Origin: a virus
Lineage: Duplodnaviria; Caudoviricetes
DNA: 64,000 nucleotides
Virus record (IMG/VR): IMGVR_UViG_3300031851_000001
Strand: one strand, 5' to 3'
The notes beneath the pieces were generated by a model. The model made no database searches, had not been told where the DNA came from, and saw nothing but the letters and a program-made list of their open reading frames with translations. A program made the position numbers and the translations under genes. This document shows positions 20,456-47,256 of the stretch, piece by piece (the first letter of the stretch is position 1; each line of letters opens with the position of its first letter).

Positions 20456-20490
20456 AATATAACTGATTCTATTGAGAATGTCAATAGTTA
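20456..20490 (-). promoter_or_regulatory. Early promoter, GANTC class (copy 1)
   Basis: TTGACA-ttctcaaTAGAATCAGT-TATATT. Confidence 0.9.
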
Positions 20491-20856
20491 ATTTAATATC
20501 ATATCAACTTTTTTCTTAAATACGATTTCAGCTTCATCCCATGAAGCGAATGAATTACTTGACAATCCATCTAATGTTTTTACATCTTTTACGAAGTTTG
20601 TTCCATTAGCATATACCATTTCGCCATACATATATGAGTTTTTATTAAAGCCTTCATCATCTTCGTATAATTCGTTTACACAAACATAACCGTTATGCTG
20701 ACAAATGAATTCGTCAAAGCTATTAAGACTTCTTATGTTATCTACATGATTGCCTACTTCGTCGCCAACTTTAGTACACATGGCAAGAGCGTCTTCTAAT
20801 CGAGATGCCATTCCAACCGTATTTGATGGAAAGGTATTTGATTTAATTGTAAACAT
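20488..20856 (-). CDS. Hypothetical protein (early)
   Basis: 122 aa, SD, after an early promoter. Confidence 0.75.
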   Translation of the reverse strand: MFTIKSNTFPSNTVGMASRLEDALAMCTKVGDEVGNHVDNIRSLNSFDEFICQHNGYVCVNELYEDDEGFNKNSYMYGEMVYANGTNFVKDVKTLDGLSSNSFASWDEAEIVFKKKVDMILN

Positions 20857-20883
20857 ACTATTTTCCTTTTGTTGTTATATACT

Positions 20884-20919
20884 ATTATAACTGATTCTAA
20901 AAGGAATGTCAATAGTTAA
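20884..20919 (-). promoter_or_regulatory. Early promoter, GANTC class (copy 2)
   Basis: TTGACA-ttcctttTAGAATCAGT-TATAAT. Confidence 0.9.
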
Positions 20920-21161
20920 TCGTAGCCGAGTCGAGCCACGCTTTTCATTTCTAATGTAAGGAGTTCTTGTACACGATTTTCATATGCTACTTCAAAACCT
21001 TCAAGTGCATATTGGGATCTTTCGTGGTTTCCCCATAGTCTTTTAAAATAACTATCATAAAGGTATTCAACAACTGAGTCTGGTTCTGACTTATCAATCA
21101 GTTGACCTTTCACCATCCAATTCAAACGGTTGGCTTCTTTACGTACTTCTGGTGAGCACAT
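20916..21161 (-). CDS. Hypothetical protein
   Basis: 81 aa with GGAGG SD. Confidence 0.75.
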   Translation of the reverse strand: MCSPEVRKEANRLNWMVKGQLIDKSEPDSVVEYLYDSYFKRLWGNHERSQYALEGFEVAYENRVQELLTLEMKSVARLGYD

Positions 21162-21234
21162 AGTGGGACCTCCTATATAAACAATGTAATATTATTTATG
21201 TTTTGGAGGTACCCACCAGCCGCTGTGTTAGCGG
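21159..21234 (-). promoter_or_regulatory. SD-sequestering leader with internal late-type promoter
   Basis: GUGGGUACCUCC (21216-21205) pairs with GGAGGUCCCAC (21173-21163). CATAAATA (21200-21193) lies in the loop. Confidence 0.55.
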
Positions 21235-21255
21235 TAACATTTAAATTTATTTTAA

Positions 21256-22221
21256 TTAAATTGGATTAATTACATAATGAATAAGTAATACCAACGCTAC
21301 TGAGGCGCCAAGACCAACCATCATTTTACCAAAGTCTTTAGCAACTAATGGAAATACTGATTTGGTTTTTCTTTTACCAAAGTATGTTGCCATAGCCAAC
21401 TCACGTCCTGCTAATAGCCCAACGAAAACCCATGTTGTACTCATAGGAATATCATTTAGTTCTTTAAAGAAATATAAACATAGCCAGTAAAACAAGTCAA
21501 TCAATGTCGCTGATCTTACATATCGAGTATTATGTTTCTCTAATACAATTTGTTGGATTTTACCACCACGTTCTCTAAACATAAAGAACAATCCACCAAC
21601 AAATACAAATGATATAAGTATCATTAAATCTACTGGTACTTGACGTGGTAAGAACACCGCAATGTTAGCAATGTCATGCGATAACCAAGTATACCATAAA
21701 CCACCAGTAGCAAGCCACTGAGCAATACGCCAAAACTTTTTATTGCCTTCACTTATAGGTGCCGTTTCATCATACCATCTACCAAAGTATTTGTGAATTA
21801 TAAACCATACTGCATAAGCAAACCCTGCAGCTACACCATAACCCATAATGGATTTCATTAGCATCTTTTCTAATACAAAGGTGCTAGCAAATACTGATAA
21901 GACTAAGAATGATGTTGAAACTGGTACACCTAATCGAGTCAATGCAACTAGAATTGCAGGTGCTGCAGCATGGTACCATTGTACTTCTTGCCACGGGATT
22001 TTATTCAAACGACCATAACTAATGTCACCGCCATTCATCATCCAACCATACCAAAGTGTGGCTAAAAGAACAGAGGACGCTGCTATCCATAATGTTTTAT
22101 AACTAAATCTCTCATTGTTTGATGCCATCCAAGTACCGAGAGTTTGTACTGAATCATTTGCTATAACTGCGTAAGCAGCAAGCAGGAATCCGATTAGACT
22201 CCACATTGTGAGTAGTTCCAT
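21256..22221 (-). CDS. PiT/PHO4-family inorganic phosphate (or sulfate) transporter
   Basis: Multi-TM with duplicated signatures ANDSVQTLG / SHDIAN and GVPVSTS / IPMSTT. Confidence 0.65.
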   Translation of the reverse strand: MELLTMWSLIGFLLAAYAVIANDSVQTLGTWMASNNERFSYKTLWIAASSVLLATLWYGWMMNGGDISYGRLNKIPWQEVQWYHAAAPAILVALTRLGVPVSTSFLVLSVFASTFVLEKMLMKSIMGYGVAAGFAYAVWFIIHKYFGRWYDETAPISEGNKKFWRIAQWLATGGLWYTWLSHDIANIAVFLPRQVPVDLMILISFVFVGGLFFMFRERGGKIQQIVLEKHNTRYVRSATLIDLFYWLCLYFFKELNDIPMSTTWVFVGLLAGRELAMATYFGKRKTKSVFPLVAKDFGKMMVGLGASVALVLLIHYVINPI

Positions 22222-22241
22222 AAATTTCTCCTTTATTGTTT

Positions 22242-22298
22242 GACGTTTTTACCACGTCGCTCACATTAAAAAAGGCAAGGTATTTACCACCTCACCTT
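22242..22298 (-). promoter_or_regulatory. Tandem hairpins with GGUAAAW loops, the first terminator-like
   Basis: AAGGUGAGGU-GGUAAAU-ACCUUGCCUU followed by a U-run, then GACGU-GGUAAAA-ACGUC, upstream of the transporter SD. Confidence 0.55.
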
Positions 22299-22305
22299 AA
22301 TCTAT

Positions 22306-22461
22306 TTATTCTTCACCTAACCAAATATTAATACTTAATAGGTTTTTATCTCTTTTACTTATTGCGTATTCTATATTGAGATCATGTAATGCTTTTCTTA
22401 ACGCTACTAATTTAGTAGGTTCTTTGGGTCTTACCCAGGTTTTTGATGGTTCATCATCCAT
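22306..22461 (-). CDS. Small hypothetical protein (51 aa, not in track)
   Basis: MDDEPSKTWVRPKEPTKLVALRKALHDLNIEYAISKRDKNLLSINIWLGEE. ATG overlaps the upstream stop. Confidence 0.6.
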   Translation of the reverse strand: MDDEPSKTWVRPKEPTKLVALRKALHDLNIEYAISKRDKNLLSINIWLGEE

Positions 22462-22871: not shown

Positions 22872-22896
22872 ATTATAATCCTTTGTTGTTTATTAG

Positions 22897-22925
22897 ATAG
22901 TACCACACTATCACATATATGTCAA
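22897..22925 (-). promoter_or_regulatory. sigma70 promoter, TGTG-extended class
   Basis: TTGACA-tatatgtgatagtgtgg-TACTAT. Confidence 0.75.
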
Positions 22926-25661: not shown

Positions 25662-25688
25662 GTGTATCCTTAAACATAATATAAAATA

Positions 25689-29477: not shown

Positions 29478-29504
29478 TCTATTATTCCTATCTGATTCTA
29501 TATA

Positions 29505-29533
29505 ATAATAACATAGTAATCGCGTGGTGTCAA
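29505..29533 (-). promoter_or_regulatory. sigma70 promoter for the gp55-47-46 block
   Basis: TTGACA-17nt-TATTAT, with a TGATTCT site just downstream (29493-29499). Confidence 0.75.
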
Positions 29534-34234: not shown

Positions 34235-34263
34235 TTGACATTACGTTAAAAGTGTGATAGAAT
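34235..34263 (+). promoter_or_regulatory. sigma70 promoter of gp52, TGTG class
   Basis: TTGACA-ttacgttaaaagtgtga-TAGAAT. Confidence 0.78.
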
Positions 34264-34291
34264 ACTATAGAATCAAAAAGGACAATACTTT

Positions 34292-36244: not shown

Positions 36245-36624
36245 TTATTGACGTATACATTTCTGAAGACTCTGCTCTAAATGATCTTGCAGCTCGGTTC
36301 GTTAAATGGATATGCAAAGAGTATGGAATATTACCAAGAAAAGTTTCTGTTGAGGCACATGATTTAGTTGGAAACAATGGTATGTGCTTTGACGAGCCTG
36401 ATGGTAAGTTTACTATATTAGTAAAAGACAATAGAGATCTTGGTCATATGTTTACAACGATTGCTCACGAAATGATCCATGTCAAACAATATATGACTCA
36501 AAACCTTGGACGTTTACTAGACGAAAACGTTGATATGCCATATGCAGATCGTTGGTGGGAAGAAGAAGCTTTTTCAAATGCAATTCCGTTAGTGACAAGA
36601 TTTACTAATTTAATTGCACTTTAA
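36241..36624 (+). CDS. HEXXH zinc metallopeptidase-like protein (paralog 2)
   Basis: TIAHEMIHVKQY ... WWEEEAF. Confidence 0.75.
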   Translation: MIIDVYISEDSALNDLAARFVKWICKEYGILPRKVSVEAHDLVGNNGMCFDEPDGKFTILVKDNRDLGHMFTTIAHEMIHVKQYMTQNLGRLLDENVDMPYADRWWEEEAFSNAIPLVTRFTNLIAL

Positions 36625-36656
36625 CTATTGACATTTGATATAGAATCAGTTATATT
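36622..36656 (+). promoter_or_regulatory. Early promoter, GANTC class (copy 3)
   Basis: TTGACA-tttgataTAGAATCAGT-TATATT, second GAATC at 36658. Confidence 0.9.
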
Positions 36657-36682
36657 AGAATCAACAAATAAAGGAATTACAC

Positions 36683-36847: not shown

Positions 36848-36849
36848 AT

Positions 36850-36884
36850 TAACTGTTGACATTCTTTATAGAATCAGTTATATT
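36850..36884 (+). promoter_or_regulatory. Early promoter, GANTC class (copy 4)
   Basis: TTGACA-ttctttaTAGAATCAGT-TATATT. Confidence 0.9.
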
Positions 36885-36915
36885 AATTAAATAAACAAAC
36901 AGAAAGAGAATCAAT

Positions 36916-37146: not shown

Positions 37147-37382
37147 TGAATATTGATTACTCACCATCTTTTGAAGATATGCTAATCTCTGATATTAGAG
37201 ACTGGGGTATAGATAACATTGAGGATAGCTTCTCTATGTCGTTAACTGATTTAACAGATAAATATTGGGATAACAAAACTTCCGTTTGGGAAGGTAATGA
37301 ACTTGACCTTATTTTAGAAGCTGAAGGGTCAGAACCAATCGTTGATTTAGAAACTACATATGGAGAACAACCTTATGAATAA
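37146..37382 (+). CDS. Acidic hypothetical protein
   Basis: 78 aa, very D/E-rich. Confidence 0.7.
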   Translation: MNIDYSPSFEDMLISDIRDWGIDNIEDSFSMSLTDLTDKYWDNKTSVWEGNELDLILEAEGSEPIVDLETTYGEQPYE

Positions 37383-37866
37383 TAGTTTAAAGAATACTAG
37401 TGCGGCAATTGCTTCACTAGTTCTAGTGACCGCACTGGCGGCGCCTACCATATCTATGGCTGAACAACCAAGCAAAGTGCGAGTTGTTGATTACAATAAG
37501 ACCATAGTAACATCAGTACCAAGTACACAAGAGGTCTGTGAAAACGTTAAAGTACCTATCTACTCATCTGTGACTACACAAGGTGATGCAGGTGGTGGCG
37601 CCTTACTCGGTATGATCCTCGGAGGTATCCTTGGCAAAGGGGTAACCGGAGATGATGGAGGGGCAGCCGCCGGTGCGGTCTTAGGAGGAGTTATTGGCGC
37701 GAATGAAGGTCAAACTCGAACAGAGCAACGCATTGTTGGATATGAAACCGAACGTCAATGTGGAACGCGCACTACATATGTTAACAAAGAACGCGAAGTA
37801 TATAGTCATTCTATTATTCACTTCCGATCTGGTGGACAAGAATACGCTCTAAGGTTTCAACGTTAA
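37360..37866 (+). CDS. Glycine-zipper 2TM secreted/membrane protein (YcfJ-like)
   Basis: Signal peptide, GALLGMILGGILGKG / GAVLGGVIGA. Confidence 0.8.
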   Translation: MENNLMNNSLKNTSAAIASLVLVTALAAPTISMAEQPSKVRVVDYNKTIVTSVPSTQEVCENVKVPIYSSVTTQGDAGGGALLGMILGGILGKGVTGDDGGAAAGAVLGGVIGANEGQTRTEQRIVGYETERQCGTRTTYVNKEREVYSHSIIHFRSGGQEYALRFQR

Positions 37867-37961
37867 TGGAAATATTAATCTATAACATTATCTTTTGGAC
37901 AATATATATTACAGTAGGATCAATTCCTTACATGATAATACAAAAGGAAATAGACAAATAA

Positions 37962-38129
37962 ATGCCATACATATTACTTCGCAACAAGAGTGTGGTTCAG
38001 CATATTATAATGGTTGGACCAACAAACGATAACTTTAGAGAGTCAAAAGTAGTTGACTTAAAGTTTGAAACATTAGAGGCAGCCAATGAGGTTGCTGAAG
38101 TTTTGAAAGCTAAAGTAAAAGCAGCATAG
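37962..38129 (+). CDS. Small hypothetical protein (55 aa, not in track)
   Basis: MPYILLRNKSVVQHIIMVGPTNDNFRESKVVDLKFETLEAANEVAEVLKAKVKAA. Confidence 0.55.
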   Translation: MPYILLRNKSVVQHIIMVGPTNDNFRESKVVDLKFETLEAANEVAEVLKAKVKAA

Positions 38130-38206
38130 GTTCCTTAGCTCAGCCGGATTAGAGCAAGTGCCTTCTAAGCACTAGGTCGTAGGTTCGAGTCCTACAGGAA
38201 TCACCA
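38129..38206 (+). tRNA. tRNA-Arg(TCT)
   Basis: Cloverleaf, anticodon arm AGTGC-CTTCTAA-GCACT, GGTTCGAGTCC, encoded CCA. Confidence 0.95.
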
Positions 38207-38215
38207 AATCAATAA

Positions 38216-38290
38216 TGGAACGTAGCATAATGGTAATGCATCGCTTTTTGGTAGCGCAGAGTATAGGTTCGAGTCCTATCGTTCCAGCCA
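38216..38290 (+). tRNA. tRNA-Gln(TTG)
   Basis: U1-A72 acceptor TGGAACG/CGTTCCA, loop TTTTGGT, CCA end. Confidence 0.9.
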
Positions 38291-38306
38291 AATAATAGGA
38301 AACAAA

Positions 38307-38489
38307 ATGTGGGTATTAGTCTTTATATATTTTTATGACTCAACACCATACGTAGAAACATATGACGTATATACTTCAATGACTGAATGCTTTAGAGGTA
38401 GAGAAGCATTGGCTGATGAAGTTGGAAAAGGCGCTGGGTATTTTAAACCCGGACAACAAGCAGTTTGCATAAACCTTCAGTCTACATAG
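38307..38489 (+). CDS. Hypothetical protein
   Basis: 60 aa between tRNAs, SD present. Confidence 0.65.
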   Translation: MWVLVFIYFYDSTPYVETYDVYTSMTECFRGREALADEVGKGAGYFKPGQQAVCINLQST

Positions 38490-38498
38490 AGACTGTTA

Positions 38499-38575
38499 GC
38501 CCGCGTGATGGAATTGGTATACATATTTGACTTAAAATCAAAGTTTTGCCGGTTCGAGTCCGGCCGCGGGTACCA
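38499..38575 (+). tRNA. tRNA-Leu(TAA), short variable loop
   Basis: GCCCGCG/CGCGGGT-ACCA, anticodon arm TTTGA-CTTAAAA-TCAAA. Confidence 0.9.
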
Positions 38576-39086
38576 ATACAGGAGAACGACGAATGCCAAT
38601 TAAATTTGATACTGGGTACTGTTTAATAGAAACGGCGTCGTCTTGATTCCCTCCGAGCACGGAATAATGTGGTTGGCCATTCACAATCTTGGTACTTACA
38701 TAGAATCCGACATGCCCTTGCCACCCACTATTCCCACGTGTAAAAATGACTACATCGCCTTGCTGAGGTTTATTAACTGGGTTTCCCCACTCTAAAAACG
38801 AACGAGCCATTAACGGATATTGGCTTACTTCAGAAGAAGTAGGGTGTCCGTTTTGCTCTAAAATCATATTGACAAACGCTGCACACCACTCAGTTGTTAC
38901 AGGATCTACACCAAGTAATTGGTAAATAATATTACGATCTTTTACTTCTTCGAGTTTATGGTATGCAAAGGCTTTGTGAGTTAATGTATGTTTAGTAGGG
39001 ATGTGTACGTGTTGTATAGGAACATTCTCACCTACACATCCTGACAAAAATAATAGTGTCGTAATTATAATAAATACATTTTTCAT
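38538..39086 (-). CDS. NlpC/P60 (TIGR02594-like) peptidoglycan hydrolase, predicted lipoprotein
   Basis: Lipobox LSGC, WCAAFVN, GHVGFY, LGGNQ. Confidence 0.85.
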   Translation of the reverse strand: MKNVFIIITTLLFLSGCVGENVPIQHVHIPTKHTLTHKAFAYHKLEEVKDRNIIYQLLGVDPVTTEWCAAFVNMILEQNGHPTSSEVSQYPLMARSFLEWGNPVNKPQQGDVVIFTRGNSGWQGHVGFYVSTKIVNGQPHYSVLGGNQDDAVSIKQYPVSNLIGIRRSPVLVPAAGLEPAKL

Positions 39087-39101
39087 ACAAGGTTATTTAT
39101 A
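39069..39101. promoter_or_regulatory. Crossing late-type promoters
   Basis: AATAAATA on + (39069-39076) and TATAAATA on - (39094-39101). Confidence 0.55.
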
Positions 39102-39956
39102 ATGAAAGTTTTAGTTACAGGCGCAACGGGTTATATCGGATCACATGTTTGTTACAAACTGAAACAAAATGGACACTATGTTGAAGGCTGGGATATTAAT
39201 TTCCATGGTGAGTATAACGACGTATCTTTTATTGACTTGTTTGAAAAGGTAGACATTACAAACATAATGTATAATGAACAAAAGTTTGATGCCGTTGTTC
39301 ATCTTGCTGGTAGAAGTATAGTACCACAAAGTCTTAAAGAGCCATCTGAATATTATAGAGTAAATGCAATGGGTACTGACCATTTACTTAAAAAAGTTAA
39401 AACACCAAACTTTATATTCGCCAGTACTAGCTCGGCATTTGAAATGGCATCGCCATATGCTCGTAGCAAAGTAGCAGCTGAGGATATAATTAAGGAGAAA
39501 GCCAATGGGCACACTATTTTTCGCTTTTATAATGTTTCTGGCACTAATGGGACATTACGGCAGCTCGGTGTTCCAAGTCATCTTATTCGCGTGGCTAGTT
39601 TGGTTGCTCACGGACAATTACCCGATATTAAAATCTTTGGCACAGACTACCCTACTCGTGATGGGACTTGCATACGTGATTATATACATGTTAGTGATCT
39701 TTGTAGCGCTATCGTAAAAGCAGTAGAAACCGGTCCAACAAATACACCATATGAATGCCTTGGTTCTGCGCAAGGGTATTCGGTATTAGATGTAATTGAT
39801 TCAATGGAAAGAGTTACTGGTAAAAAACTTAAAAAGGTTTTAACAGATAGAAGAGCAGGTGATGCAACTTCATGTATTGTTGATAATTTATCGGAATTGT
39901 GTGAGCTTACTAAAACACTTGATGATATGTGCCTAGACCAATATAATCTAGCTTAG
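39102..39956 (+). CDS. galE: UDP-glucose 4-epimerase (extended SDR)
   Basis: VTGATGYIGSH, HLAG, YARSK (YxxxK), RDYIHV. Confidence 0.9.
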   Translation: MKVLVTGATGYIGSHVCYKLKQNGHYVEGWDINFHGEYNDVSFIDLFEKVDITNIMYNEQKFDAVVHLAGRSIVPQSLKEPSEYYRVNAMGTDHLLKKVKTPNFIFASTSSAFEMASPYARSKVAAEDIIKEKANGHTIFRFYNVSGTNGTLRQLGVPSHLIRVASLVAHGQLPDIKIFGTDYPTRDGTCIRDYIHVSDLCSAIVKAVETGPTNTPYECLGSAQGYSVLDVIDSMERVTGKKLKKVLTDRRAGDATSCIVDNLSELCELTKTLDDMCLDQYNLA

Positions 39957-39985
39957 TGTACGACTCCCAATGGGAGCCATACTTT

Positions 39986-40270
39986 TTAAACAGCGAAGCT
40001 TTCGCCACAACCACATGATGCAGTTGCGTTAGGGTTTACCACCTTCAAATAAGATCCGCCAAGTTCCTCGATGTAATCAACTGTACATCCAAAAACAAAC
40101 ATTTCTGCCATTGGGTCAAGCCATAAGTTATCAACGGTCGCTTCCTTATCGGTAACTCCCCACTCATACTGAAATCCAGAACAGCCACCACCTTTTACAT
40201 TAAGTGATACATTTGGCTTACCGACTTTCTTTAAATAGTCTTTTGCTCTATCAGTGACATTTAAAATCAT
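39986..40270 (-). CDS. iscA: IscA/HesB Fe-S cluster carrier
   Basis: VKGGGCSGFQY, NPNATASCGCGESF. Confidence 0.92.
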   Translation of the reverse strand: MILNVTDRAKDYLKKVGKPNVSLNVKGGGCSGFQYEWGVTDKEATVDNLWLDPMAEMFVFGCTVDYIEELGGSYLKVVNPNATASCGCGESFAV

Positions 40271-40425
40271 TCAGATTTCCACATAGTCCAAGCACCCCAA
40301 GCAATCGCAACGCCTGCTGCAATTTTAGCCAATGGTGCCATAAATAAAATCATAAGACCAAGCGCAATACACACTCCGCCGTCCCATGTGGTTCTTTCTT
40401 TTAGTCTGTTTTTAATCCAGCTCAT
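40267..40425 (-). CDS. Small 2-TM protein, holin-like (52 aa, not in track)
   Basis: MSWIKNRLKERTTWDGGVCIALGLMILFMAPLAKIAAGVAIAWGAWTMWKSE. Confidence 0.65.
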   Translation of the reverse strand: MSWIKNRLKERTTWDGGVCIALGLMILFMAPLAKIAAGVAIAWGAWTMWKSE

Positions 40426-40739
40426 TTTTTTGTTCCCTTCTGTCTAATAATCTTAGTATTAGATTTGGTTTCTAAGTGTTTTAGACGCATTTCCATATCG
40501 TCAATCTTTTGAGTGATTTTTGGATACTTTTTACGCCAAGCATTTTCCGGCTGCTCTAACCATGTCCAACCCCAACGTTCAACCAAGAAATCCATTCCTC
40601 TATCAAATCGAGCGTATAACCATAAAGCCATTCGCGTGGTGCTGAACCATGTCGAAAACGCGAGTCCAATAATAGACCCGCCTATCGCAGTATAGATCCA
40701 TAAACGATCTCCTGCCATATTAGATAACATTTCCCACAT
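40422..40739 (-). CDS. Membrane-anchored hypothetical protein
   Basis: N-terminal TM, Trp-rich, C-terminal coiled coil. Confidence 0.75.
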   Translation of the reverse strand: MWEMLSNMAGDRLWIYTAIGGSIIGLAFSTWFSTTRMALWLYARFDRGMDFLVERWGWTWLEQPENAWRKKYPKITQKIDDMEMRLKHLETKSNTKIIRQKGTKK

Positions 40740-41470
40740 TATTCATTTCCCTTTGTATATTTACAATAATGGTTCATACCATGATCGTATGCTCCATCAA
40801 AAGGCATTCCTTTTTTCAGTGCCCTCCAACGACCTCTCCATTGGTCTTTAACTCGTTGCCATTTGGAAGCTTTTCTAATTTTTCCGTAGTAATTGATATA
40901 ACGCGGAGCGGTAGTATGTCTATACCCGAGGAATGCGAACGGTACTTTTGGTACGATATCATTATTGTTGACATGCCGATAGTGAGGAATATGATTAAAG
41001 CTTTTAACAAATTTTCGTGTTCCTGCTCTTGGAGATCCATATGTATATAACGCATCACATACGTCAGGCAGTCGGCTCGCTGCAATAGTAGCCATTGCTC
41101 CACCAAGTGAATGCCCAGTTATATAAAACATCTTTCCTTCTAATTTCATTTTTGCCATGGCTGTTCTAATTTCATCCCAGATTTTTTCAATTTCTGTTTG
41201 GAAACCATTATGAACATATCCATAGCCATTTGCTGCTTTATCTGGTAAAGCATTTAAGTCTGCTTTAATATCAGAAAACTCAGAAGGCTCAGTACCTCGG
41301 AAACATAATACTATTTCGCTTTTATTTGAAACGATATGAACTTGAGCTCCATCGTTTTCAATAAATTTGTGCGAAGTGTAACCAACTTTTTTATATGCAG
41401 CCTTGGCTTCTTTTCCATCCATATATGCTATTTGTGCGCATTGCGCCATTAATGAACATTTATTTTCCAT
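40739..41470 (-). CDS. Class 3 lipase / alpha-beta hydrolase
   Basis: FRGT, VHNGF, TGHSLGG (GxSxG), DIVPKVP, H. Confidence 0.9.
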   Translation of the reverse strand: MENKCSLMAQCAQIAYMDGKEAKAAYKKVGYTSHKFIENDGAQVHIVSNKSEIVLCFRGTEPSEFSDIKADLNALPDKAANGYGYVHNGFQTEIEKIWDEIRTAMAKMKLEGKMFYITGHSLGGAMATIAASRLPDVCDALYTYGSPRAGTRKFVKSFNHIPHYRHVNNNDIVPKVPFAFLGYRHTTAPRYINYYGKIRKASKWQRVKDQWRGRWRALKKGMPFDGAYDHGMNHYCKYTKGNE

Positions 41471-41663
41471 TTTGTCTATCCTTTAGAATGTCTTGCATTG
41501 TTTTAGTTGCAGTGTTTATAAACAGACGAGGTGCAATTGCATGTATTAATAATATAGGAACTAATCCTTGTAATTTAATAGCAGCTTTTACCGCGCCTTT
41601 TGCATGTTCTAAACCAGTTTCACCAACATCTTCTAGATGAGCTTTACATTTTTTACTAAACAT
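41460..41663 (-). CDS. DUF6356-like small protein
   Basis: HLEDVGETGLEH ... LLIHAIAP.LF..TA. Confidence 0.6.
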   Translation of the reverse strand: MFSKKCKAHLEDVGETGLEHAKGAVKAAIKLQGLVPILLIHAIAPRLFINTATKTMQDILKDRQNGK

Positions 41664-41824
41664 TAATCTACCTTATCGTTATTGTAATGAGTTGGGTTTA
41701 AGCGCTCATCCATAATAGGTCCAACGTTTTCCCAGTAATTTTTACTCTTCATTACAGTTTCTTGGTATACATGGCAGACAATAGCTCCCATTACAACTCC
41801 TAGTACTAATAAAAACCATTTCAT
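41663..41824 (-). CDS. Small membrane-anchored protein (53 aa, not in track)
   Basis: MKWFLLVLGVVMGAIVCHVYQETVMKSKNYWENVGPIMDERLNPTHYNNDKVD. Confidence 0.6.
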   Translation of the reverse strand: MKWFLLVLGVVMGAIVCHVYQETVMKSKNYWENVGPIMDERLNPTHYNNDKVD

Positions 41825-41973
41825 TTTAAGTATCCATCCCATGATCGTGCGTCTGTTTCTGTTTCTTTACATTTACATTTAGTACAAACATCGTTGTGGC
41901 ATTCATCACAATCTGGTCTATAACAATGACATTTATGTCCGCACGTTTGACATGTTCTTGATGGTCCTTGCAT
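41821..41973 (-). CDS. Metallothionein-like Cys/His-rich peptide (50 aa, not in track)
   Basis: MQGPSRTCQTCGHKCHCYRPDCDECHNDVCTKCKCKETETDARSWDGYLK: 9 Cys, 3 His, GGAG SD, ATGA overlap downstream. Confidence 0.7.
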   Translation of the reverse strand: MQGPSRTCQTCGHKCHCYRPDCDECHNDVCTKCKCKETETDARSWDGYLK

Positions 41974-41982
41974 ATGTTTCTC

Positions 41983-42678
41983 CTAGTTTGCTAACGGGTT
42001 GTCTAATGCTCTCTGTAATTTATTCATTAATGTTGTTTCGAGTTCAGTCATTTCTCTTTTGATTGATGATCTTAAAGCTTCGTTATCGCGTTCAACCTTA
42101 CCTTCCAAATCAGTCATACGACTGTCGTTGGAATCTCTAAGGTTGTTTGCTTTATTGTCGTATTGGTTTTGTAATGCATCACGTTTATTATCAAAACGTT
42201 CTTCAGCATTTTGAATTATTTGTCTTACGTCTGCTTCTAAATCTCGTACTAATTTTTCAACTCTTCTAACTTGCGCGTCCAAATTATTCATTTGGTCTCG
42301 AGTATCAACTTTGCCTTCTCTATTTCGTTTTTCAGCATCATCAATTTGTTTTTGAATTGCAGTTAACTGAATAGTAATTTCTTTATTAACATTTGCTAGT
42401 GATGCTTCTATTTCTTGATTTCTTGTTTCAATAACATCAACATCAATATTTCGCACAATCTCTTTCATGCCCATGTAATCATCATACACTTGGAAAGCGC
42501 CGTATAGTCCACCTAAAATAGAACTGATTAAAGCGAACAACATACCGATCGTTGTGGGAGTCATAGTAATACCTAAGAATTTCATCTTGGTATTTTTTAA
42601 ATTCTCTACCTCAGCTTCAAAATTCTCAATGCCTTCGCCTAAGTCTTTGTCGGCCATGTTGCTCTCCTTAGTTTTCAA
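41983..42678 (-). CDS. Single-TM protein with long coiled coil
   Basis: TM near the N-terminus then heptad repeats. Confidence 0.75.
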   Translation of the reverse strand: MKTKESNMADKDLGEGIENFEAEVENLKNTKMKFLGITMTPTTIGMLFALISSILGGLYGAFQVYDDYMGMKEIVRNIDVDVIETRNQEIEASLANVNKEITIQLTAIQKQIDDAEKRNREGKVDTRDQMNNLDAQVRRVEKLVRDLEADVRQIIQNAEERFDNKRDALQNQYDNKANNLRDSNDSRMTDLEGKVERDNEALRSSIKREMTELETTLMNKLQRALDNPLAN

Positions 42679-43081
42679 ATCCAGAATTGCCGGACTCGTT
42701 TAATTTTCTTAGTTGTTCTAATTCTTGTTGTAGTTTTAAAACTTCTAATCTCTTTTTACGCAATTCTAATTGATATAATGAATTGCAATTAATTCTTTCT
42801 TTTGGTTTATCAAGTGGTATAGTAATTCGTGCATATACACCAACATCTTTTGTATCAGTTCCGCTGCCACTAAAGGGGCTTGAATAATTATCAATAACTC
42901 CAGTAACGCCAAACTCAAAATTCGTTGCACCACCAATAGAGTTTTTACAATCTAAATCTCCAGTACTAATACTATCTTGACCATACGTGGCACCCATCCC
43001 TGGGAGCGATAATCCTATAGAACTACTATCAGCATTCGCCATGCATGGCATCAACAATATACATGTTATAATACGTTTCAT
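42668..43081 (-). CDS. Secreted protein, 2 Cys, C-terminal coiled coil
   Basis: Signal peptide ending ANA, beta-rich core. Confidence 0.75.
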   Translation of the reverse strand: MKRIITCILLMPCMANADSSSIGLSLPGMGATYGQDSISTGDLDCKNSIGGATNFEFGVTGVIDNYSSPFSGSGTDTKDVGVYARITIPLDKPKERINCNSLYQLELRKKRLEVLKLQQELEQLRKLNESGNSGFEN

Positions 43082-43479
43082 TATTCACCAACCTTTTTCA
43101 CTCTAGAACAAATTCTTGAACTTACCGCAGTACGTATCGTATTGTCTTTTTTAAGTTTAGACTGAGAACAAATATATGTTACTATTTTTGCGTCTTGGTC
43201 TCTTATAAAAATATCAAACGAAACAGTACTTAAATAAGGTATCTTCCAAACTTTATATTGCGAAACAAATGGAATAGGTTTCCAATCTTCAGTGAATACA
43301 CCTATTTCATAATATTCAACGTCTGCTCTTTTATTAAACATAGTCATGGTAGTCTTCTGCAGCCCGTCTATATAGGAACCACTAATCTTAGGATAAGTTG
43401 GAACCATTTCGTGAGACGAGGCTGCAGCGGATATTGTAATCAAAACTATACTTATAACGAATATCAATCTTTTTTTCAT
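43081..43479 (-). CDS. Secreted protein, possible PapD-like pilus chaperone domain
   Basis: Signal peptide. The TMTMFN...YYEIGVF..W.PIPF......IP..STVSFDIFIR pattern resembles chaperone domain 1. Confidence 0.45.
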   Translation of the reverse strand: MKKRLIFVISIVLITISAAASSHEMVPTYPKISGSYIDGLQKTTMTMFNKRADVEYYEIGVFTEDWKPIPFVSQYKVWKIPYLSTVSFDIFIRDQDAKIVTYICSQSKLKKDNTIRTAVSSRICSRVKKVGE

Positions 43480-43576
43480 AATCTTTTCCACCTTTATTTA
43501 AGAGCTCCAGTTATGGACACCCAGGCCATCTTCTACAACTTGCACCAGATGAACTTGAACTACTGCTCCCACCATT

Positions 43577-44092
43577 TCATTGAGCGATACACTCCGCTAC
43601 AACGATAGCCGTATAATTACCACCAGCGAAGGCTTTGTTACCACCCATAACTGCTGATGATGAAGTCTTAAACCAAGTTGATCCTGTCGCTGTTAGATCG
43701 TAGCGATCCATCATTCCAATTTCAACCTTGTTAGTTTCATAAGCACTCATACCTGTAGAGTCTGACACTGTTTGCACAACTGTATCACCAGTCCATGTTA
43801 CAACATCAGGTAAACTTGGTGCTGATGAAAAACTGCTTGGCGCAGTGATTTGGGCATAGTACGCATCAGCCAATGAAACATCAAAACGAATTACTGCTAA
43901 TTCACCACCGTCTGATGGTGTTGTAGTAAGAGTATACGCATTAGGGTTACCATATGTACCTGCAGTATCTGTTTGAATAACACAACGTGATTGTACTGTT
44001 CCGTTAATAGGCGTGTCGTTAGCTAAGACCATTGTTGAGGAAATTGTCATAGCTGCTATCGCACCTAATCCAAAAATCTTTTTACTTAACAT
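43577..44092 (-). CDS. Secreted beta-rich protein, Csu/CS1 pilin-like
   Basis: Signal peptide, INGTVQSRCVI N-terminal strand and AGGNYTAIVVAEC C-terminal strand. Confidence 0.5.
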   Translation of the reverse strand: MLSKKIFGLGAIAAMTISSTMVLANDTPINGTVQSRCVIQTDTAGTYGNPNAYTLTTTPSDGGELAVIRFDVSLADAYYAQITAPSSFSSAPSLPDVVTWTGDTVVQTVSDSTGMSAYETNKVEIGMMDRYDLTATGSTWFKTSSSAVMGGNKAFAGGNYTAIVVAECIAQ

Positions 44093-44106
44093 TTTTTGTC
44101 TCCTAA

Positions 44107-45024
44107 TTAATTGTTTAAATTATATTGCATACCAACCATTTGTTGGTGTAATAATTGCTGTGCGAGACCAACCCGTGCGCCGCTATTTGCATCAGGCATT
44201 TTACCATCGGGTATATTAATAACTTCGTTATATGTACCACCCGGTATAGTTACGTTAAGATAAGATCTATTCAATGCAGCTTGCGCAATGTCATTCATTA
44301 TACTAATTCGTTGATTTTCAGCAAAGTAAGTTGCGGTTTCTCCCGCAGCCATTGCATCTTCCAATCTCATTTTTGATCTCTTATCCTCTTTCATCTCAGC
44401 TTCTTTTCTACTATCAGCATCCTCTAAATCATCAGCGTCTTCTTGGACCTCTGCTTGATCGTTGAGTTCAACATCTCCATCTTTTGTCACGTCGTATATA
44501 TCGTCTAAATCATATTCTATTATTTCAGGAACTGGCTTTTTATATCCTGGGCAGTTTGGATCATATTGCGGATCATAACACGGTGTAACTTTATATGTAT
44601 AAACAACACTTGCGCCTTCAACCTTACCTTCTCCAACTACTTCAATACTTCCCATTCCCCATAGTTCTCTTGGTATATTACCTACAGGAACAGCTTTACT
44701 AATTTCCATACCGGATATAGAACCCGGCTTCCAATCATCTCTTTCTCTAAATATATATCCATTTCCATCTATTCTTTCATTCTGAACATAAACGGTTACC
44801 CATTCGCCAGTTTCTTTTTGTATCGTATAGCGGTATATTACGTTTTGTATATCAATCCCAGGAACCCCTTGTGGCAAAAGGTCAGGCATAGACCATTGTA
44901 AAGCTTGGTCTGCTACTGCATTTCCAGTATAACCATAATATGGCGCAATGCTCTTAGTCTCCTCAGAGGAAGAGTAAGAAGGCCAGAATGCCAGCGCCAA
45001 CAGCAGGAGCAACTTTTTCTGCAT
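44107..45024 (-). CDS. Secreted hypothetical protein
   Basis: Signal peptide, CYDPQYDPNCPGY, acidic coiled coil. Confidence 0.75.
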   Translation of the reverse strand: MQKKLLLLLALAFWPSYSSSEETKSIAPYYGYTGNAVADQALQWSMPDLLPQGVPGIDIQNVIYRYTIQKETGEWVTVYVQNERIDGNGYIFRERDDWKPGSISGMEISKAVPVGNIPRELWGMGSIEVVGEGKVEGASVVYTYKVTPCYDPQYDPNCPGYKKPVPEIIEYDLDDIYDVTKDGDVELNDQAEVQEDADDLEDADSRKEAEMKEDKRSKMRLEDAMAAGETATYFAENQRISIMNDIAQAALNRSYLNVTIPGGTYNEVINIPDGKMPDANSGARVGLAQQLLHQQMVGMQYNLNN

Positions 45025-45550
45025 CTATAGGTCCCATTAATTTAAGTTCTTTTTTAGTTTCTGCTACGTGAGTTTCCCAACCAAGTTTGGCAGCCTCACC
45101 AATTTGTCCATCGTACGGGCAGGGTGTTCCGGCTTGCATCATTGCGTCAAAAACACCAGTATCCTGACACATCACGGATACCGCTGCCACCTTCATTCCC
45201 ATATCATATAATGTTTTTGCATTCTTTAATCTCTGACAATTTTCTTCAGTGAATGTACCACCACCAGAAATACCTAGGATCTGCGTTTGAACCGCAGCTG
45301 ATACGCCGATAGTACATAAGTCCGTATTATTGCCTGCTGAAAATTGTGGGGAGATTGCTGTAGGAGGTGGTTGGTTAATTGTAGTTTCCATCGTACCAGT
45401 AGAATTGATATTACTGTCAGTACCTGATTTTGTACATACGTAACCTGTTGGACATTCAACATCTTCTGCTGAAGCTATCGTTCCCATAGTAATGAAAATC
45501 GCGATCAAACATATTGCGTATAACCATACCATTGCTTTTTTAACAAACAT
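44963..45550 (-). CDS. Secreted Cys-rich protein with C-terminal hydrophobic anchor
   Basis: Signal peptide, 6 Cys in the mature part, C-terminal VGAGILAFLLFL. Confidence 0.75.
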   Translation of the reverse strand: MFVKKAMVWLYAICLIAIFITMGTIASAEDVECPTGYVCTKSGTDSNINSTGTMETTINQPPPTAISPQFSAGNNTDLCTIGVSAAVQTQILGISGGGTFTEENCQRLKNAKTLYDMGMKVAAVSVMCQDTGVFDAMMQAGTPCPYDGQIGEAAKLGWETHVAETKKELKLMGPIDAEKVAPAVGAGILAFLLFL

Positions 45551-45616
45551 AATCTTTCTCCAAATTAATACATGCGATTAAGGCACAACCGCGCAGCCAA
45601 ATTTTGCTATTCCTTT

Positions 45617-45628
45617 TATTTATAAATA
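45617..45628. promoter_or_regulatory. Palindromic bidirectional late promoter
   Basis: TATTTATAAATA reads TATAAATA on both strands. Confidence 0.75.
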
Positions 45629-45681
45629 TTAGCGTATTCAACAGAGAATTTAAATGAAATCGAATTGGGAGTGTAACAATT

Positions 45682-46164
45682 ATGTACGAGTATAGAGCAA
45701 ACATTAATAGAGTAGTCGACGGCGACACAGTAGACTGTGATATTGAATTGGGCTTCGGCGTGGTTTTAGCTGATGAAAGAGTGCGAATTATGGGTATTGA
45801 TACACCAGAATCGAGAACATCAGATAAAGTCGAAAAGGTTTTTGGTCTAGCAGCCAAAGAACAGTTAAAGAAATTATTAGGTAAACAATGTATTCTTAAA
45901 ACACAAATTGCGCGTAATGGTGAGGATATGAAAGGTAAATTTGGACGTATCCTTGGCGATTTTATTGCTGAAGATGGTAGAATGATTACCGATATCATGG
46001 CAGAAACTGGACACTGCGTTCCTTATATGGGTGGATCTAAAGAAGATACACAAGCAGGACACGAGGCGAATAGAAAACGTTTATTGAGCGAAGGTGTTGT
46101 ATCAAAAGAAGCATACGACAAAGCAGTAAAAATTATGGAAAAGAAGGCGAAAAAGAATGGATAA
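45682..46164 (+). CDS. SNase-like (thermonuclease) nuclease
   Basis: RVVDGDT, VRIMGIDTPE, KFGRILG. Confidence 0.88.
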   Translation: MYEYRANINRVVDGDTVDCDIELGFGVVLADERVRIMGIDTPESRTSDKVEKVFGLAAKEQLKKLLGKQCILKTQIARNGEDMKGKFGRILGDFIAEDGRMITDIMAETGHCVPYMGGSKEDTQAGHEANRKRLLSEGVVSKEAYDKAVKIMEKKAKKNG

Positions 46165-46474
46165 CTTTACGTTAGCAGAATTACAAGAAATGGTTGACAA
46201 CTTAAGTACTGGTACTATTTTAGCGTCAGCAGTTTACGTACATATGAATGCATCAGGCGAAGGCGTATACGATGCAACAGATACTGACGGCGACAATGGA
46301 CACGTTTATATAACCGATCGCGGGGCTTCTGGATTTACAATTAATATAAATTCATTAATTACTGCGGAAGACGTTGTACATACATACCCTACATATGGTG
46401 AAAACGAAGAAGGTGAAATGATTGTAACTGGTGAATCTGGTAAAAACCAAGTTGCTGAAGACGAATATAATTAA
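46157..46474 (+). CDS. Acidic hypothetical protein
   Basis: 105-aa ORF. Confidence 0.65.
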   Translation: MDNFTLAELQEMVDNLSTGTILASAVYVHMNASGEGVYDATDTDGDNGHVYITDRGASGFTININSLITAEDVVHTYPTYGENEEGEMIVTGESGKNQVAEDEYN

Positions 46475-46493
46475 AATAAACTTAAATTAACTA

Positions 46494-46522
46494 TTGACAT
46501 TCCTGTTCTAATATGGTAAATT
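46494..46522 (+). promoter_or_regulatory. sigma70 promoter
   Basis: TTGACA-17nt-TAAATT, with GAATC at 46525 just downstream. Confidence 0.7.
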
Positions 46523-46548
46523 AGAATCAACAAATAAAGGAATATGTT

Positions 46549-46920
46549 ATGAAAAAGTTTAAACTATATCAAATCCAAATGACAAACGAAATCGTTGATG
46601 CGGTTAATGCTGGTAAAACAGTACCTGCATATTCAGCAAAGATGAAAATGTCAATGGATTTAAGAGGAACTAACATCGGTAACTTAGCCGGTGATGCTTT
46701 TGCTGAAGAGTATTACACACATGTTTCAACTATTACTGCTGAAGACTTTAACCAAGTTTTTGAAATTGGTAACATTGGTCCAGAGTCAAACATCGAAAGA
46801 TTTTCACGTATGGCATCCGTATCAATAGGTGATATAATTGTTGACGACGAAGGTACAATGGTTGTTGTTGCTCCAACAGGTTTTGTAGCTTTTGCGTATT
46901 TTCCAAAATTAGCAGCCTAA
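46549..46920 (+). CDS. Hypothetical protein (early, YodL-like pattern)
   Basis: FKLYQI ... VFEIGN ... SVSIGDIIV. Confidence 0.6.
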   Translation: MKKFKLYQIQMTNEIVDAVNAGKTVPAYSAKMKMSMDLRGTNIGNLAGDAFAEEYYTHVSTITAEDFNQVFEIGNIGPESNIERFSRMASVSIGDIIVDDEGTMVVVAPTGFVAFAYFPKLAA

Positions 46921-46922
46921 TT

Positions 46923-46957
46923 TAACTATTGACATTCTCTTTAGAATCAGTTATATT
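46923..46957 (+). promoter_or_regulatory. Early promoter, GANTC class (copy 5)
   Basis: TTGACA-ttctcttTAGAATCAGT-TATATT. Confidence 0.9.
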
Positions 46958-46984
46958 AGAATTAAATAAACAAAGGAAAATACT

Positions 46985-47224
46985 ATGACAACTTACAATA
47001 TCGAGCTTGACATATCTCACGAACCAACTAACGAAGAGGTTCAGCAATTCGCAAAAGATCACGGGTGTTCGGCAACTCTATTACAAGCTAATGGTCCTGC
47101 TGGTGGTAATCCACTTTACCTATTTCAATCTGATAATTTTGACCATCTTGATGAATTGGCTTCTCAAGTCTTGGGAGTAAATACAGACATTGAATTTATC
47201 AAAACTTCAATATATCAAAATTAA
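46985..47224 (+). CDS. Hypothetical protein (early)
   Basis: 79 aa, AAGGA SD. Confidence 0.75.
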   Translation: MTTYNIELDISHEPTNEEVQQFAKDHGCSATLLQANGPAGGNPLYLFQSDNFDHLDELASQVLGVNTDIEFIKTSIYQN

Positions 47225-47256
47225 CTATTGACATTCTCCTTAGAATCAGTTATATT
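47222..47256 (+). promoter_or_regulatory. Early promoter, GANTC class (copy 6)
   Basis: TTGACA-ttctcctTAGAATCAGT-TATATT. Confidence 0.9.

Follow-up and report, generated by a model that had tools for sequence, protein, structure and literature searches.

Methylation-sensitive promoters such as Mu mom, P1 cre and IS10 pIN, which carry Dam GATC sites, illustrate how a short palindromic methylation site in or beside a promoter can couple transcription to the methylation of incoming or newly replicated DNA. These examples involve GATC and host Dam, occur in enterobacteria, and comprise one or few promoters each. The middle promoters of phage T4 use a short sequence called the MotA box, which replaces the -35 element at about -30 and requires both MotA and AsiA. 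Early promoters of T4-like phages can also reside on PeSL cassettes (Arbiol 2010, PMC2839356; Comeau 2014, PMC4122927). In Caulobacter, sigma70 promoters are controlled through GcrA and CcrM (Haakonsen 2015, PMC4647560; Fioravanti 2013, PMC3667746), and the sites of the GcrA regulon are ‘narrowly centered around -20’ and ‘+2 to +30’ (PMC4647560). A published scan of phage genomes for the GcrA motif detected no genome along which the sites were unevenly clustered (PMC9437464).

Here we describe a GAATC box embedded in early promoters of an uncultured marine T4-like phage, represented by a stretch of 64,000 nucleotides (hereafter the window). The box promoters form a distinct class of sigma70-type early-promoter cassettes that is found throughout the clade, and these cassettes precede small ORFan genes in plastic regions of the phage genome.

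Anatomy of the box promoters

A pattern search of the window for TTGACA-N9-GAATC yields exactly six matches without a mismatch; when up to one mismatch was allowed, shuffled sequences gave a mean of 1.83 matches, and 0 of 100 shuffles reached six. On alignment, TTAACT-TTGACATT, TAGAATCAGT and TATAWT are invariant among the six promoters and the spacer is 17 nucleotides, such that the cassette layout is TTAACYA-TTGACATT-N5-TAGAATCAGT-TATAWT. The earlier note on this DNA had described six promoters of common architecture, with GAATC starting exactly 15 nucleotides after the first T of TTGACA and TGATTCT on the opposite strand, and the alignment and exact matches bear this out, with the spacing true in 6/6. 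Transcription start sites are predicted positions.

20456..20491, minus strand: box promoter 1 (pattern match 20465-20484), with TTAACTA, TTGACA at 20484-20479, GAATC at -20..-16 (GATTC on the plus strand, 20465-20469) and TATATT; drives a 98-aa ORFan (20428-20132), then genes beyond
20884..20919, minus strand: box promoter 2 (match 20893-20912), with TATAAT as its -10; drives a 122-aa ORFan (20856-20488)
36621..36656, plus strand: box promoter 3 (match 36628-36647); drives a 54-aa ORF (36683-36847)
36849..36884, plus strand: box promoter 4 (match 36856-36875), with upstream TTAACTG; drives ORFs from 36916 to 37866, then three tRNA genes
46922..46957, plus strand: box promoter 5 (match 46929-46948); drives a 79-aa ORF (46985-47224)
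47221..47256, plus strand: box promoter 6 (match 47228-47247); drives ORFs 47288-47446 and 47465-47791

The ORFs downstream of promoters 1 and 2 have no Pfam or PHROG match and are thus classed as ORFans. All six promoters carry consensus -35 and -10 elements, including a perfect TTGACA, and therefore an activator is not obviously needed.

The same pentamer recurs elsewhere in these cassettes, and near the predicted start sites of promoters that lack the spacer box:

46487..46529, plus strand: sister cassette without the spacer box (the seventh cassette, 46494), with TTAACTA-TTGACATT and the same leader as the box class; AGAATCA immediately follows the -10 (GAATC 46524-46528)
20450..20454, minus strand: second AGAATCA copy of promoter 1, at about -6..-1; promoter 3 has the same arrangement at 36658-36662
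36908..36912, plus strand: leader GAATC adjoining the Shine-Dalgarno of promoter 4's first gene; the promoter 6 equivalent is at 47280-47284
29494..29533, minus strand: sigma70 promoter of the non-box type; its -10 is extended and TAGAATCA lies at the predicted start site
34235..34274, plus strand: sigma70 promoter, also lacking the box; TAGAATCA again falls at its predicted start site

The extra GANTC sites that had previously been listed are all present, one of which, given as 46525, actually starts at 46524.

Conservation and distribution of the box

When 588 unique strong promoters are scored for mismatches to TAGAATCAGT at the fixed offset, the counts are bimodal: 78 promoters are exact and 27 carry one mismatch, with a background peak at 6-8 mismatches. 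The five positions adjoining the box (N5, offsets 8-12) vary freely and GAATC is conserved at 96-100%, which indicates that the box is under selection rather than recently copied. The conserved core consists of GAATC plus a G at -14 (99% conserved). Where GANTC permits any central base, 137 of 138 box copies have A, and read along the GAKTC strand the 138 box-like copies include none with G or C in the middle. Box promoters lack the TG extended -10 entirely (0%), have G at -14 in 100% and TATATT in 78%, whereas TG is present in 41% of non-box promoters and their -10 hexamers are varied.

The extra element can be described as a hexamer, GAATCA (opposite strand TGATTC), which is fixed at -20..-15 in the box class. 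However, AGAATCA recurs at offsets 29 and 33-35, the inverted form TGATTCT occurs at offset 28, and the hexamer lies near the start site in 13 of 115 non-box promoters versus 0.39 expected (P about 3e-16). That the hexamer varies in position and orientation favors a separate reader over a fixed contact with the polymerase.

Among complete or near-complete relatives, G1, G2 and G3 carry 11, 13 and 10 box promoters, respectively, which constitute about a quarter of their strong sigma70-type promoters. IMG/VR has more than 100 stretches with exact copies of the box, at 70-95% identity to the window. A more distant group retains GAATCRGT-TATATT with different flanks; outside this phage lineage and its distant relatives, the box was not found. 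Two further genomes, G4 and G5, have neither box promoters nor depletion of GAWTC.

The cassettes coincide with mosaic junctions. Relative L040 changes from 99% to 82% identity at 20861, in the promoter 2 region; L004 carries an additional cassette plus ORF inserted at 36677, at promoter 3; and L010 lacks 47272-47790, a deletion that begins in the leader of promoter 6. The regions driven by the cassettes are represented in contigs from RNA libraries, which include little of the adjoining minus-strand operon at about 40.8-44.8 kb.

Genome-wide statistics of GANTC

The earlier note had called for a count of GANTC in promoters versus coding DNA, and the motif proves to be enriched in the former and depleted in the latter. 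Over the whole window GANTC is under-represented (123 observed versus 188 expected), and its density is 4.98 per kb in intergenic DNA versus 1.72 per kb in coding DNA. The depletion is confined to part of the motif: in coding DNA of the clade, GAATC/GATTC is reduced about 2-fold (O/E 0.29-0.67) and GACTC/GAGTC is at or above expectation (O/E 1.07-1.68). Thus the constraint is on GAWTC and not on CcrM's GANTC, and GAGTC/GACTC is enriched exactly in the frame where GAA to GAG and GAT to GAC are synonymous escapes. Together with the nearly invariant central A of the box, this contradicts the supposition that the recognized unit is GANTC with any central base. The roughly 2-fold avoidance of GAWTC elsewhere in the genome suggests that a 5-bp reader of the methylase or nuclease type is part of the system, and the palindromes CATG, GGCC and CCGG show similar moderate depletion.

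For 151 promoters of four genomes, promoter-proximal sites are enriched 3.5-fold (8.6 per kb versus 2.5 per kb genome-wide), an enrichment that is absent in G4 and G5, both of which lack the box. Forty sites fall in the bin around -20 and the remainder extend from about -6 to +25. The central base is W in 99% of promoter sites, and YGAKTCK is fitted by 78% of promoter-proximal sites versus 32% genome-wide and about 25% expected by chance; promoter-proximal heptamers include TGATTCT (68), TGATTCC (14) and TGATTCG (3), and most of the sites that fit YGAKTCK read TGATTCT.

Phage genes related to DNA modification and host

17089..17751, minus strand: P0001, an N6-adenine-type methyltransferase (phrog_799)
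62813..63151, plus strand: permuted alpha-type tmRNA

P0001 exists as had been proposed and carries the ITNPPY motif, in the gamma-like order FYPTPP, EPCAGRG (motif I), ITNPPY (motif IV). It gave no match in Pfam (E up to 0.01), NCBIfam or PDB. A CcrM-like enzyme is ruled out, because motif I precedes motif IV and there is no PF01555 match. G1-G3 encode homologues with 67-72% identity; G4 and G5 encode none. In the distant contig G433, which carries the box and is 56% complete, no P0001 homologue is seen and the depletion of GAWTC is weak (0.70 and 0.89). No gene for GcrA (PF07750) or a CcrM-type enzyme (PF01555) was found in five relatives, four of which are rated 100% complete and one 91%. 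Genes resembling those for dCMP hydroxymethylase and a C5-MTase are also present, together with a deaminase gene, and the phage DNA probably carries modified cytosine. The chief hint at an alphaproteobacterial host, present or past, is the tmRNA, for which a sample of 401 alphaproteobacterial genomes offered no close bacterial relative.

Possible roles of the box

The box is most likely a putative cofactor site within PeSL-like recombining promoter cassettes. To the specific proposal that a sequence-specific trans-acting factor docks on it, the site not being defined by GANTC methylation, we assign a probability of roughly 0.4. Each cassette runs from upstream TTAACYA through TTGACATT, a free N5 and GAATCAGT-TATATT to a leader that contains a Shine-Dalgarno. 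The factor would cooperate with sigma70 RNA polymerase on first-wave promoters and could either boost these promoters at injection or shut them off later, and the cassettes also serve as homology patches for gene swapping, like PeSL elements. Cassette anatomy, selection on the box, its spread across the clade, the enrichment near promoters and the mosaic junctions are shown by the data; the reading of the box by a protein, the identity of this protein and the direction of its effect are what we infer here. No candidate binding protein was identified. A search of five relatives for MotA and AsiA homologues (PF09158, PF09010), conducted without a positive control, returned no match. Three features run counter to this proposal. 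The core spans only 5-7 bp and is pseudo-palindromic, features commoner among methylase or restriction-type sites than among transcription-factor sites; the avoidance of GAWTC elsewhere in the genome suggests a 5-bp reader of the methylase or nuclease type; and the bottom-strand heptamer, TGATTCT here and TGATTCG in the distant group, agrees with the GcrA optimum as published.

The earlier note had favored a switch in which host CcrM methylates the GANTC of the box and GcrA reads this mark at -20 and near or after the start, activating first-wave promoters in an inherited, possibly cell-cycle-linked manner. This version seems unlikely. We consider doubtful the related claim that methyl-adenine at GAATC, laid previously by host CcrM or by the phage methyltransferase at -20 of a quarter of early promoters, gates the first wave when read by a GcrA-type sigma70 cofactor; were it true, early transcription would hinge on an inherited epigenetic state or on the host cell-cycle state. 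What holds up is that the site positions match those of the Caulobacter GcrA regulon (PMC4647560), that YGAKTCK is favored near promoters and the distant group's heptamer is the published optimum, that overall GANTC depletion with intergenic enrichment is also found in CcrM-bearing Alphaproteobacteria (PMC3973325), and that the tmRNA is of the alpha type. Moreover, CcrM is reported for SAR11, and a sample of 401 alphaproteobacterial genomes includes 258 in which a GcrA score passes the Pfam cut-off (a tally that includes one unpublished genome, G047, on which no claim depends by itself), several of the GcrA-bearing genomes being small (1.2-1.4 Mb) with 28-33% GC in 20-kb pieces around gcrA. 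However, the GAWTC-only constraint with its synonymous-escape signature, the central W of promoter sites, the lack of gcrA or ccrM-type genes in five relatives and a methyltransferase that is not CcrM-like all speak against it, as do promoters that already match consensus at -35 and -10. The probable modified cytosine could hinder CcrM, and the phage Melnitz, with an alpha-type tmRNA, infects OM43 (PMC9004378). Furthermore, TTGACA-N9-GANTC is absent from five AT-rich GcrA-bearing genomes, and 120 kb from six such genomes shows neither intergenic GANTC enrichment nor a preference for TGATTCK.

A mark could also be placed without CcrM, if a GAWTC-specific P0001 or host enzyme modifies the box in progeny and thereby tunes the polymerase or a reader in the next infection. 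The exact GAWTC constraint would be accounted for, two-fold depletion with promoter enrichment is a described signature of a regulatory orphan methylase, and P0001 homologues are present in the window and G1-G3 and missing from the two genomes that lack both box and depletion. This last comparison sets one clade against two outgroup genomes and hence is not independent evidence. Since CATG, GGCC and CCGG are similarly depleted, ordinary restriction avoidance explains GAWTC equally well; in addition, no database match indicates the target of P0001, and G433 has the box with no P0001 homologue, which leaves self-marking quite improbable. Somewhat less so, though still improbable, is that no separate reader exists and the box acts as spacer DNA favorable to the host polymerase through twist or through contacts with sigma region 3 or the beta-prime zipper, kept by descent and gene conversion, with GANTC incidental and GAWTC depletion reflecting unrelated restriction avoidance. 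Here, the 16-nucleotide block from -22 to -7 is conserved together with the -35 block, G at -14 is the base that matters most in an extended -10, the box was found in one lineage and its distant relatives only, and the cassettes recombine, PeSL elements being similarly conserved promoter cassettes in other T4-like phages (PMC4122927). Yet the freely varying N5 argues against homogenization, the class distribution is bimodal and not graded, the distant group keeps GAATC although its flanks differ, and the hexamer is enriched near starts in both orientations, even in non-box promoters. A cofactor site within recombining cassettes thus remains our preferred explanation.

Comparison with known systems

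The box resembles the MotA box of T4 middle promoters in being a short conserved element of a sigma70 promoter; in T4, this element is read by a cofactor and defines a temporal class, as the box may do here. Unlike the T4 promoters, those of this phage have a perfect -35, place the box at -20 and are accompanied by no MotA or AsiA match, a search that lacked a positive control. Mu mom, P1 cre and IS10 pIN differ in that a whole class of promoters carries GAATC, a putative methylation site, in the phage.

The GcrA/CcrM promoters of Caulobacter (PMC4647560, PMC3667746) are closer in site placement, as both systems have a GANTC heptamer fitting YGAKTCK near -20 as well as around or downstream of the start, and both show the motif under-represented in coding DNA and over-represented close to promoters. 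In contrast to Caulobacter, the central base in the phage is W (A in 137/138) and the constraint is GAWTC, the -35 and -10 elements are consensus, and no gcrA or ccrM-type gene is found in five phage relatives.

Like the PeSL cassettes of T4-like phages (PMC2839356, PMC4122927), the box promoters are sigma70 early promoters that are close to consensus and occur repeatedly, preceded by AT-rich DNA and followed by a leader and a Shine-Dalgarno; both kinds stand before ORFans in plastic regions, at junctions of insertion, deletion and replacement. Unlike PeSLs, the four plus-strand box promoters have no terminator-like hairpin beside them (scan of 36000-48000), and a PeSL-like hairpin upstream of the promoter occurs only in the distant group (L294). 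PeSLs have not been described with a fixed spacer box, whereas the cassettes of this phage possess one.

Six promoters of the window carry GAATC at a fixed spacer position

A pattern search for TTGACA-N9-GAATC with zero mismatches returned exactly six promoters in the window, a number reached in none of 100 shuffles with one mismatch permitted. The six are given here by the start and strand of the -35 element, followed by a seventh cassette.

20484, minus strand, box promoter (exact pattern match)
20912, minus strand, box promoter (exact pattern match)
36628, plus strand, box promoter (exact pattern match)
36856, plus strand, box promoter (exact pattern match)
46929, plus strand, box promoter (exact pattern match)
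47228, plus strand, box promoter (exact pattern match)
46494, plus strand, seventh cassette, with the upstream half and leader of the six and the spacer box absent

Alignment of the six box promoters reveals three invariant blocks, namely TTAACT(A/G) immediately 5′ of the -35 element, TTGACATT, and TAGAATCAGT followed by TATAWT. The spacer measures 17 nt, and 5 free bases separate the -35 block from the box. An earlier note on this DNA had described six promoters with GAATC at a fixed position, and this description is borne out by the exact search, the shuffles and the alignment. The extra GANTC sites that it named are all present, with 46525 corrected to a start at 46524. The ORFs behind the six promoters (52-122 aa) have no counterpart among Pfam or PHROG families.

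The conserved block directly 5′ of the -35 element was noted at these positions.

20485-20491, TTAAC(T/C)A element
36621-36627, TTAAC(T/C)A element
46922-46928, TTAAC(T/C)A element
47221-47227, TTAAC(T/C)A element

When the first T of TTGACA is included, this element reads TTAACTAT or TTAACCAT, which resembles the CtrA half-site of Caulobacter, TTAACCAT. A full TTAA-N7-TTAA site was not seen in the two copies inspected by eye.

The box promoters form a clade-wide class with a conserved core

The exact 32-nt promoter motif is present in 61 IMG/VR stretches and a looser pattern in at least 105, and the motif-bearing contigs share only 70-95% identity with the window. Three complete or near-complete relatives were read in their entirety: G1 (221 kb; L155-166), G2 (201 kb; L144-154) and G3 (183 kb; L183-192). 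They hold 11, 13 and 10 box-promoter copies, respectively, which constitute about one quarter of the strong promoters (TTGACA-N17-TAnnnT) in each genome. The GAATC-box promoters noticed earlier are thereby confirmed and extended to a clade.

Mismatches to the box are distributed bimodally among 588 unique strong promoters, with 78 exact copies, 27 copies carrying one mismatch, and a background that peaks at 6-8. Across 138 box-like copies, the G, A, A, T and C of the box are conserved in 96, 100, 99, 97 and 96%, respectively, and G at position -14 in 99%; the TA flank and the final T reach only 77-87%. The core under selection is GAATC plus the G at -14. Offsets 8-12 (the N5 segment) vary freely in the same 138 copies, and the similarity of the boxes therefore reflects selection rather than recent copying. 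None of the box promoters carries a TG extended -10, all have G at -14, and 78% have TATATT; among non-box promoters, 41% carry a TG extended -10 and the -10 hexamers are varied. The TAGAAT embedded in the box was also considered as a decoy or second -10 element and rejected, since the key A at offset 14 is kept in only 77% of copies, with C a frequent substitute, and since neither this TAGAAT nor the TAGAAT behind the real -10 has a correctly spaced -35.

A more distant group, represented by the 100-kb contig G433 (L341-345; copies at 59152 and 60499), retains TTGACA-N9-GAATC(A/G)GT-TATATT, with CC replacing TA before the core and with upstream sequence that differs from that of the window clade. 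In other promoters of G433, TGATTCG or TGATTCT lies at different spacer or leader positions. Box promoters in unrelated phages would have suggested a host factor, but only two single matches (L311 and L319) were found there, and these are compatible with chance.

The box hexamer recurs at other promoter positions

The window, G1, G2 and G3 together have 151 unique strong promoters. AGAATCA lies at offset 14 in 36 of these, directly behind the -10 element (offset 29) in 7, and at offsets 33-35, where transcription is predicted to start, in 7; the inverted form, TGATTCT, lies at offset 28 in 6. Near the predicted start, AGAATCA is found in 13 of 115 non-box promoters versus 0.39 expected (P about 3e-16). 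GANTC density is 8.6 per kb in promoters (-35 to +35) versus 2.5 per kb genome-wide, GAWTC accounts for 99% versus 54% of these sites, and 78% versus 32% of them fit YGAKTCK. Promoter GANTC sites of G433 follow a like pattern, but with TGATTCG, and no promoter enrichment of GANTC is seen in G4 or G5, two genomes that lack box promoters. The resulting layout is one sharp peak near -20, with the other sites scattered broadly around the predicted start and beyond it. That the hexamer occurs at multiple positions and in both orientations speaks for a separate reader rather than a fixed contact with polymerase.

Selection acts on GAWTC

Judged by composition, GANTC falls short of expectation overall (observed/expected, O/E, 0.58) and exceeds it between genes (1.63). 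Counting against a Markov background, as suggested earlier, likewise finds the motif depleted overall (O/E 0.73). Overall depletion with intergenic excess is, superficially, the pattern of Alphaproteobacteria that carry CcrM (PMC3973325). Coding O/E values computed per motif against synonymous-codon shuffles divide the GANTC sites.

Table. Coding O/E of the four GANTC sequences.
Window: GAATC 0.44, GATTC 0.29, GACTC 1.35, GAGTC 1.53
G1: GAATC 0.63, GATTC 0.41, GACTC 1.31, GAGTC 1.22
G2: GAATC 0.57, GATTC 0.54, GACTC 1.48, GAGTC 1.57
G3: GAATC 0.65, GATTC 0.67, GACTC 1.07, GAGTC 1.68

A Markov model reproduces this split, with GAATC and GATTC low and GACTC and GAGTC not. The excess of GAGTC and GACTC falls in the reading frame that makes GAA-to-GAG and GAT-to-GAC silent, and from these codon patterns the two changes look like escapes from GAWTC, with GASTC being 'safe'. 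Whatever agent shapes the box-clade genomes therefore recognizes GAWTC, not GANTC.

G4 (L167-174) and G5 (L175-182) are 30%-GC, 140-kb myoviruses in which the generic upstream half of the promoter is all that is shared, and neither is depleted of GAWTC. Both avoid GATC, GGCC, CCGG, GCAGC and GAGTC almost totally (0-1 sites versus about 30 expected), which is classical restriction avoidance of a kind absent from the box clade. CATG, GGCC and CCGG are likewise moderately depleted in the box clade, and so its GAWTC avoidance may be plain restriction avoidance.

In gene interiors of the window and G1-G3, the exact box heptamer AGAATCA/TGATTCT occurs about as often as expected (92 versus 99.5), a context-specific exemption from the depletion; the remaining fifteen NGAWTCN classes, when pooled, have an O/E of 0.48.

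The phage, hints of its host and its encoded factors

The window represents a portion of the genome of an uncultured marine T4-like phage. Its gp43 polymerase shares only 43% identity with cyanomyophage gp43, the large subunit of topoisomerase II is about 50% identical to those of KVP40-like vibriophages, and megablast and blastn find no DNA-level match to the window among GenBank phages. At least 17 studies have marine metagenomes or RNA libraries that contain sequence of the lineage, and the question of how its promoter classes are separated therefore concerns a common marine virus. Several features are encoded in the window.

62813-63151, plus strand, permuted alpha-type tmRNA (RF01849, 104.5 bits; tag ANENFAPSGFALAA)
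39102-39956, plus strand, NAD-dependent epimerase
50443-51165, minus strand, protein-kinase-domain gene
6887-7336, minus strand, Hsp20 gene
17089-17751, minus strand, P0001, NPPY-motif methyltransferase ORF of N6-adenine type

The alpha-type tmRNA hints at an alphaproteobacterial host; phage Melnitz has an alpha-type tmRNA, yet infects OM43 (PMC9004378). When the tmRNA is compared with 401 sampled alphaproteobacterial genomes (including one unpublished genome, G047, on which no conclusion depends), only 30-50 nt of the tRNA-like part match. For the epimerase, the bacterial homologues found reach 37% identity at most, so that none is a close source. GcrA exceeds the Pfam cut-off in 258 of the 401 genomes, several of which are 1.2-1.4 Mb in size, with 20-kb pieces around gcrA of 28-33% GC. 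SAR11 has been reported to possess CcrM. Mimicry of host promoters was rejected, since TTGACA-N9-GANTC is absent from five AT-rich GcrA-bearing genomes, and 120 kb of six GcrA-bearing genomes exhibit neither intergenic GANTC enrichment nor a preference for TGATTCK.

Neither a GcrA domain (PF07750) nor a CcrM-type one (PF01555) was found in five relatives with complete or near-complete genomes. One phage that lacks box promoters encodes a 371-aa ORF (L143, G005:14521-14667) whose N terminus weakly resembles the GcrA family, short of the cut-off (E 3.3e-4). Control of the MotA/AsiA type was set aside, as a search of five relatives, run without a positive control, found no homologues.

The NPPY protein claimed at 17089-17751 does contain an ITNPPY motif. 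Its motif order (FYPTPP, motif I, ITNPPY) is, judged by sequence, gamma-like and unlike that of beta-class CcrM. P0001 falls in phrog_799, its metagenomic homologues, which number in the hundreds, are unannotated, and it has no Pfam, NCBIfam or PDB match from which a specificity could be read. Homologues are present in the window and G1-G3 and absent from G4 and G5, a distribution that parallels the box and GAWTC depletion as a single clade contrast. The window also encodes a dCMP-hydroxymethylase-like gene, a dCMP deaminase and a C5-MTase-like gene, and the phage DNA is therefore likely to contain modified cytosine.

Cassettes coincide with recombination joints

One related stretch (L040) is 99% identical to the window up to 20861 and 82% identical past it, and lacks the 321-aa gene of window 21256-22221. 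Another (L004) has an additional cassette and ORF at 36677, and a third (L010) lacks 47272-47790, a deletion that begins inside the cassette leader. RNA-library contigs join cassettes 46513 to 47218 and 46544 to 46924, skipping the intervening ORFs, and have loose ends at cassette borders. Such joints reflect either deletions present in natural variants or misjoining of the repeats during assembly, and the loose ends could stem from the latter.

Possible readings and relation to known systems

We tentatively favor a reading, with a probability of about 0.42, in which the cassettes would form a discrete class of first-wave sigma70 promoters that also mediate gene shuffling, with GAATCA at -20 as the site where a trans-acting cofactor would act. 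The earlier note had instead proposed that CcrM and GcrA gate these promoters. Site position, heptamer context and the alpha-type tmRNA provide real support for that proposal, but GANTC fails as the unit under selection, GAWTC taking its place, and gating of this kind seems unlikely. A purely polymerase-intrinsic role for the spacer is unlikely, given that the hexamer occurs at multiple positions and in both orientations. Alternatively, the phage's own methyltransferase might lay a GAWTC-specific mark, as would fit the manner in which P0001 tracks the box and GAWTC depletion across one clade contrast; however, avoidance of GAWTC may be restriction avoidance, and we regard such a mark as unlikely too.

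We know of no mechanism that separates prereplicative promoter classes in T4-like phages without MotA/AsiA, such as cyanophages, pelagimyophages and this clade. A discrete box under strong selection, present in about 25% of sigma70 promoters, offers a concrete handle on this problem. Should methylation play a part, the box promoters would be the first such class in phages to be tied to an epigenetic reader of the GcrA kind; otherwise, the box points to an unknown promoter cofactor. Under either reading, the cassettes mark places of early-gene swapping in the clade.

In their behavior as recombination joints, the window cassettes are like PeSL elements (PMC4122927). However, PeSL elements have a stem-loop, and strict membership was rejected because no upstream hairpin lies beside the window copies scanned; in the more distant group, a clear hairpin does precede the L294 copy (about 5016, minus strand), which is true PeSL anatomy. 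The peak at -20, with its spread at and after the start, resembles the layout described for the Caulobacter GcrA regulon (PMC4647560).
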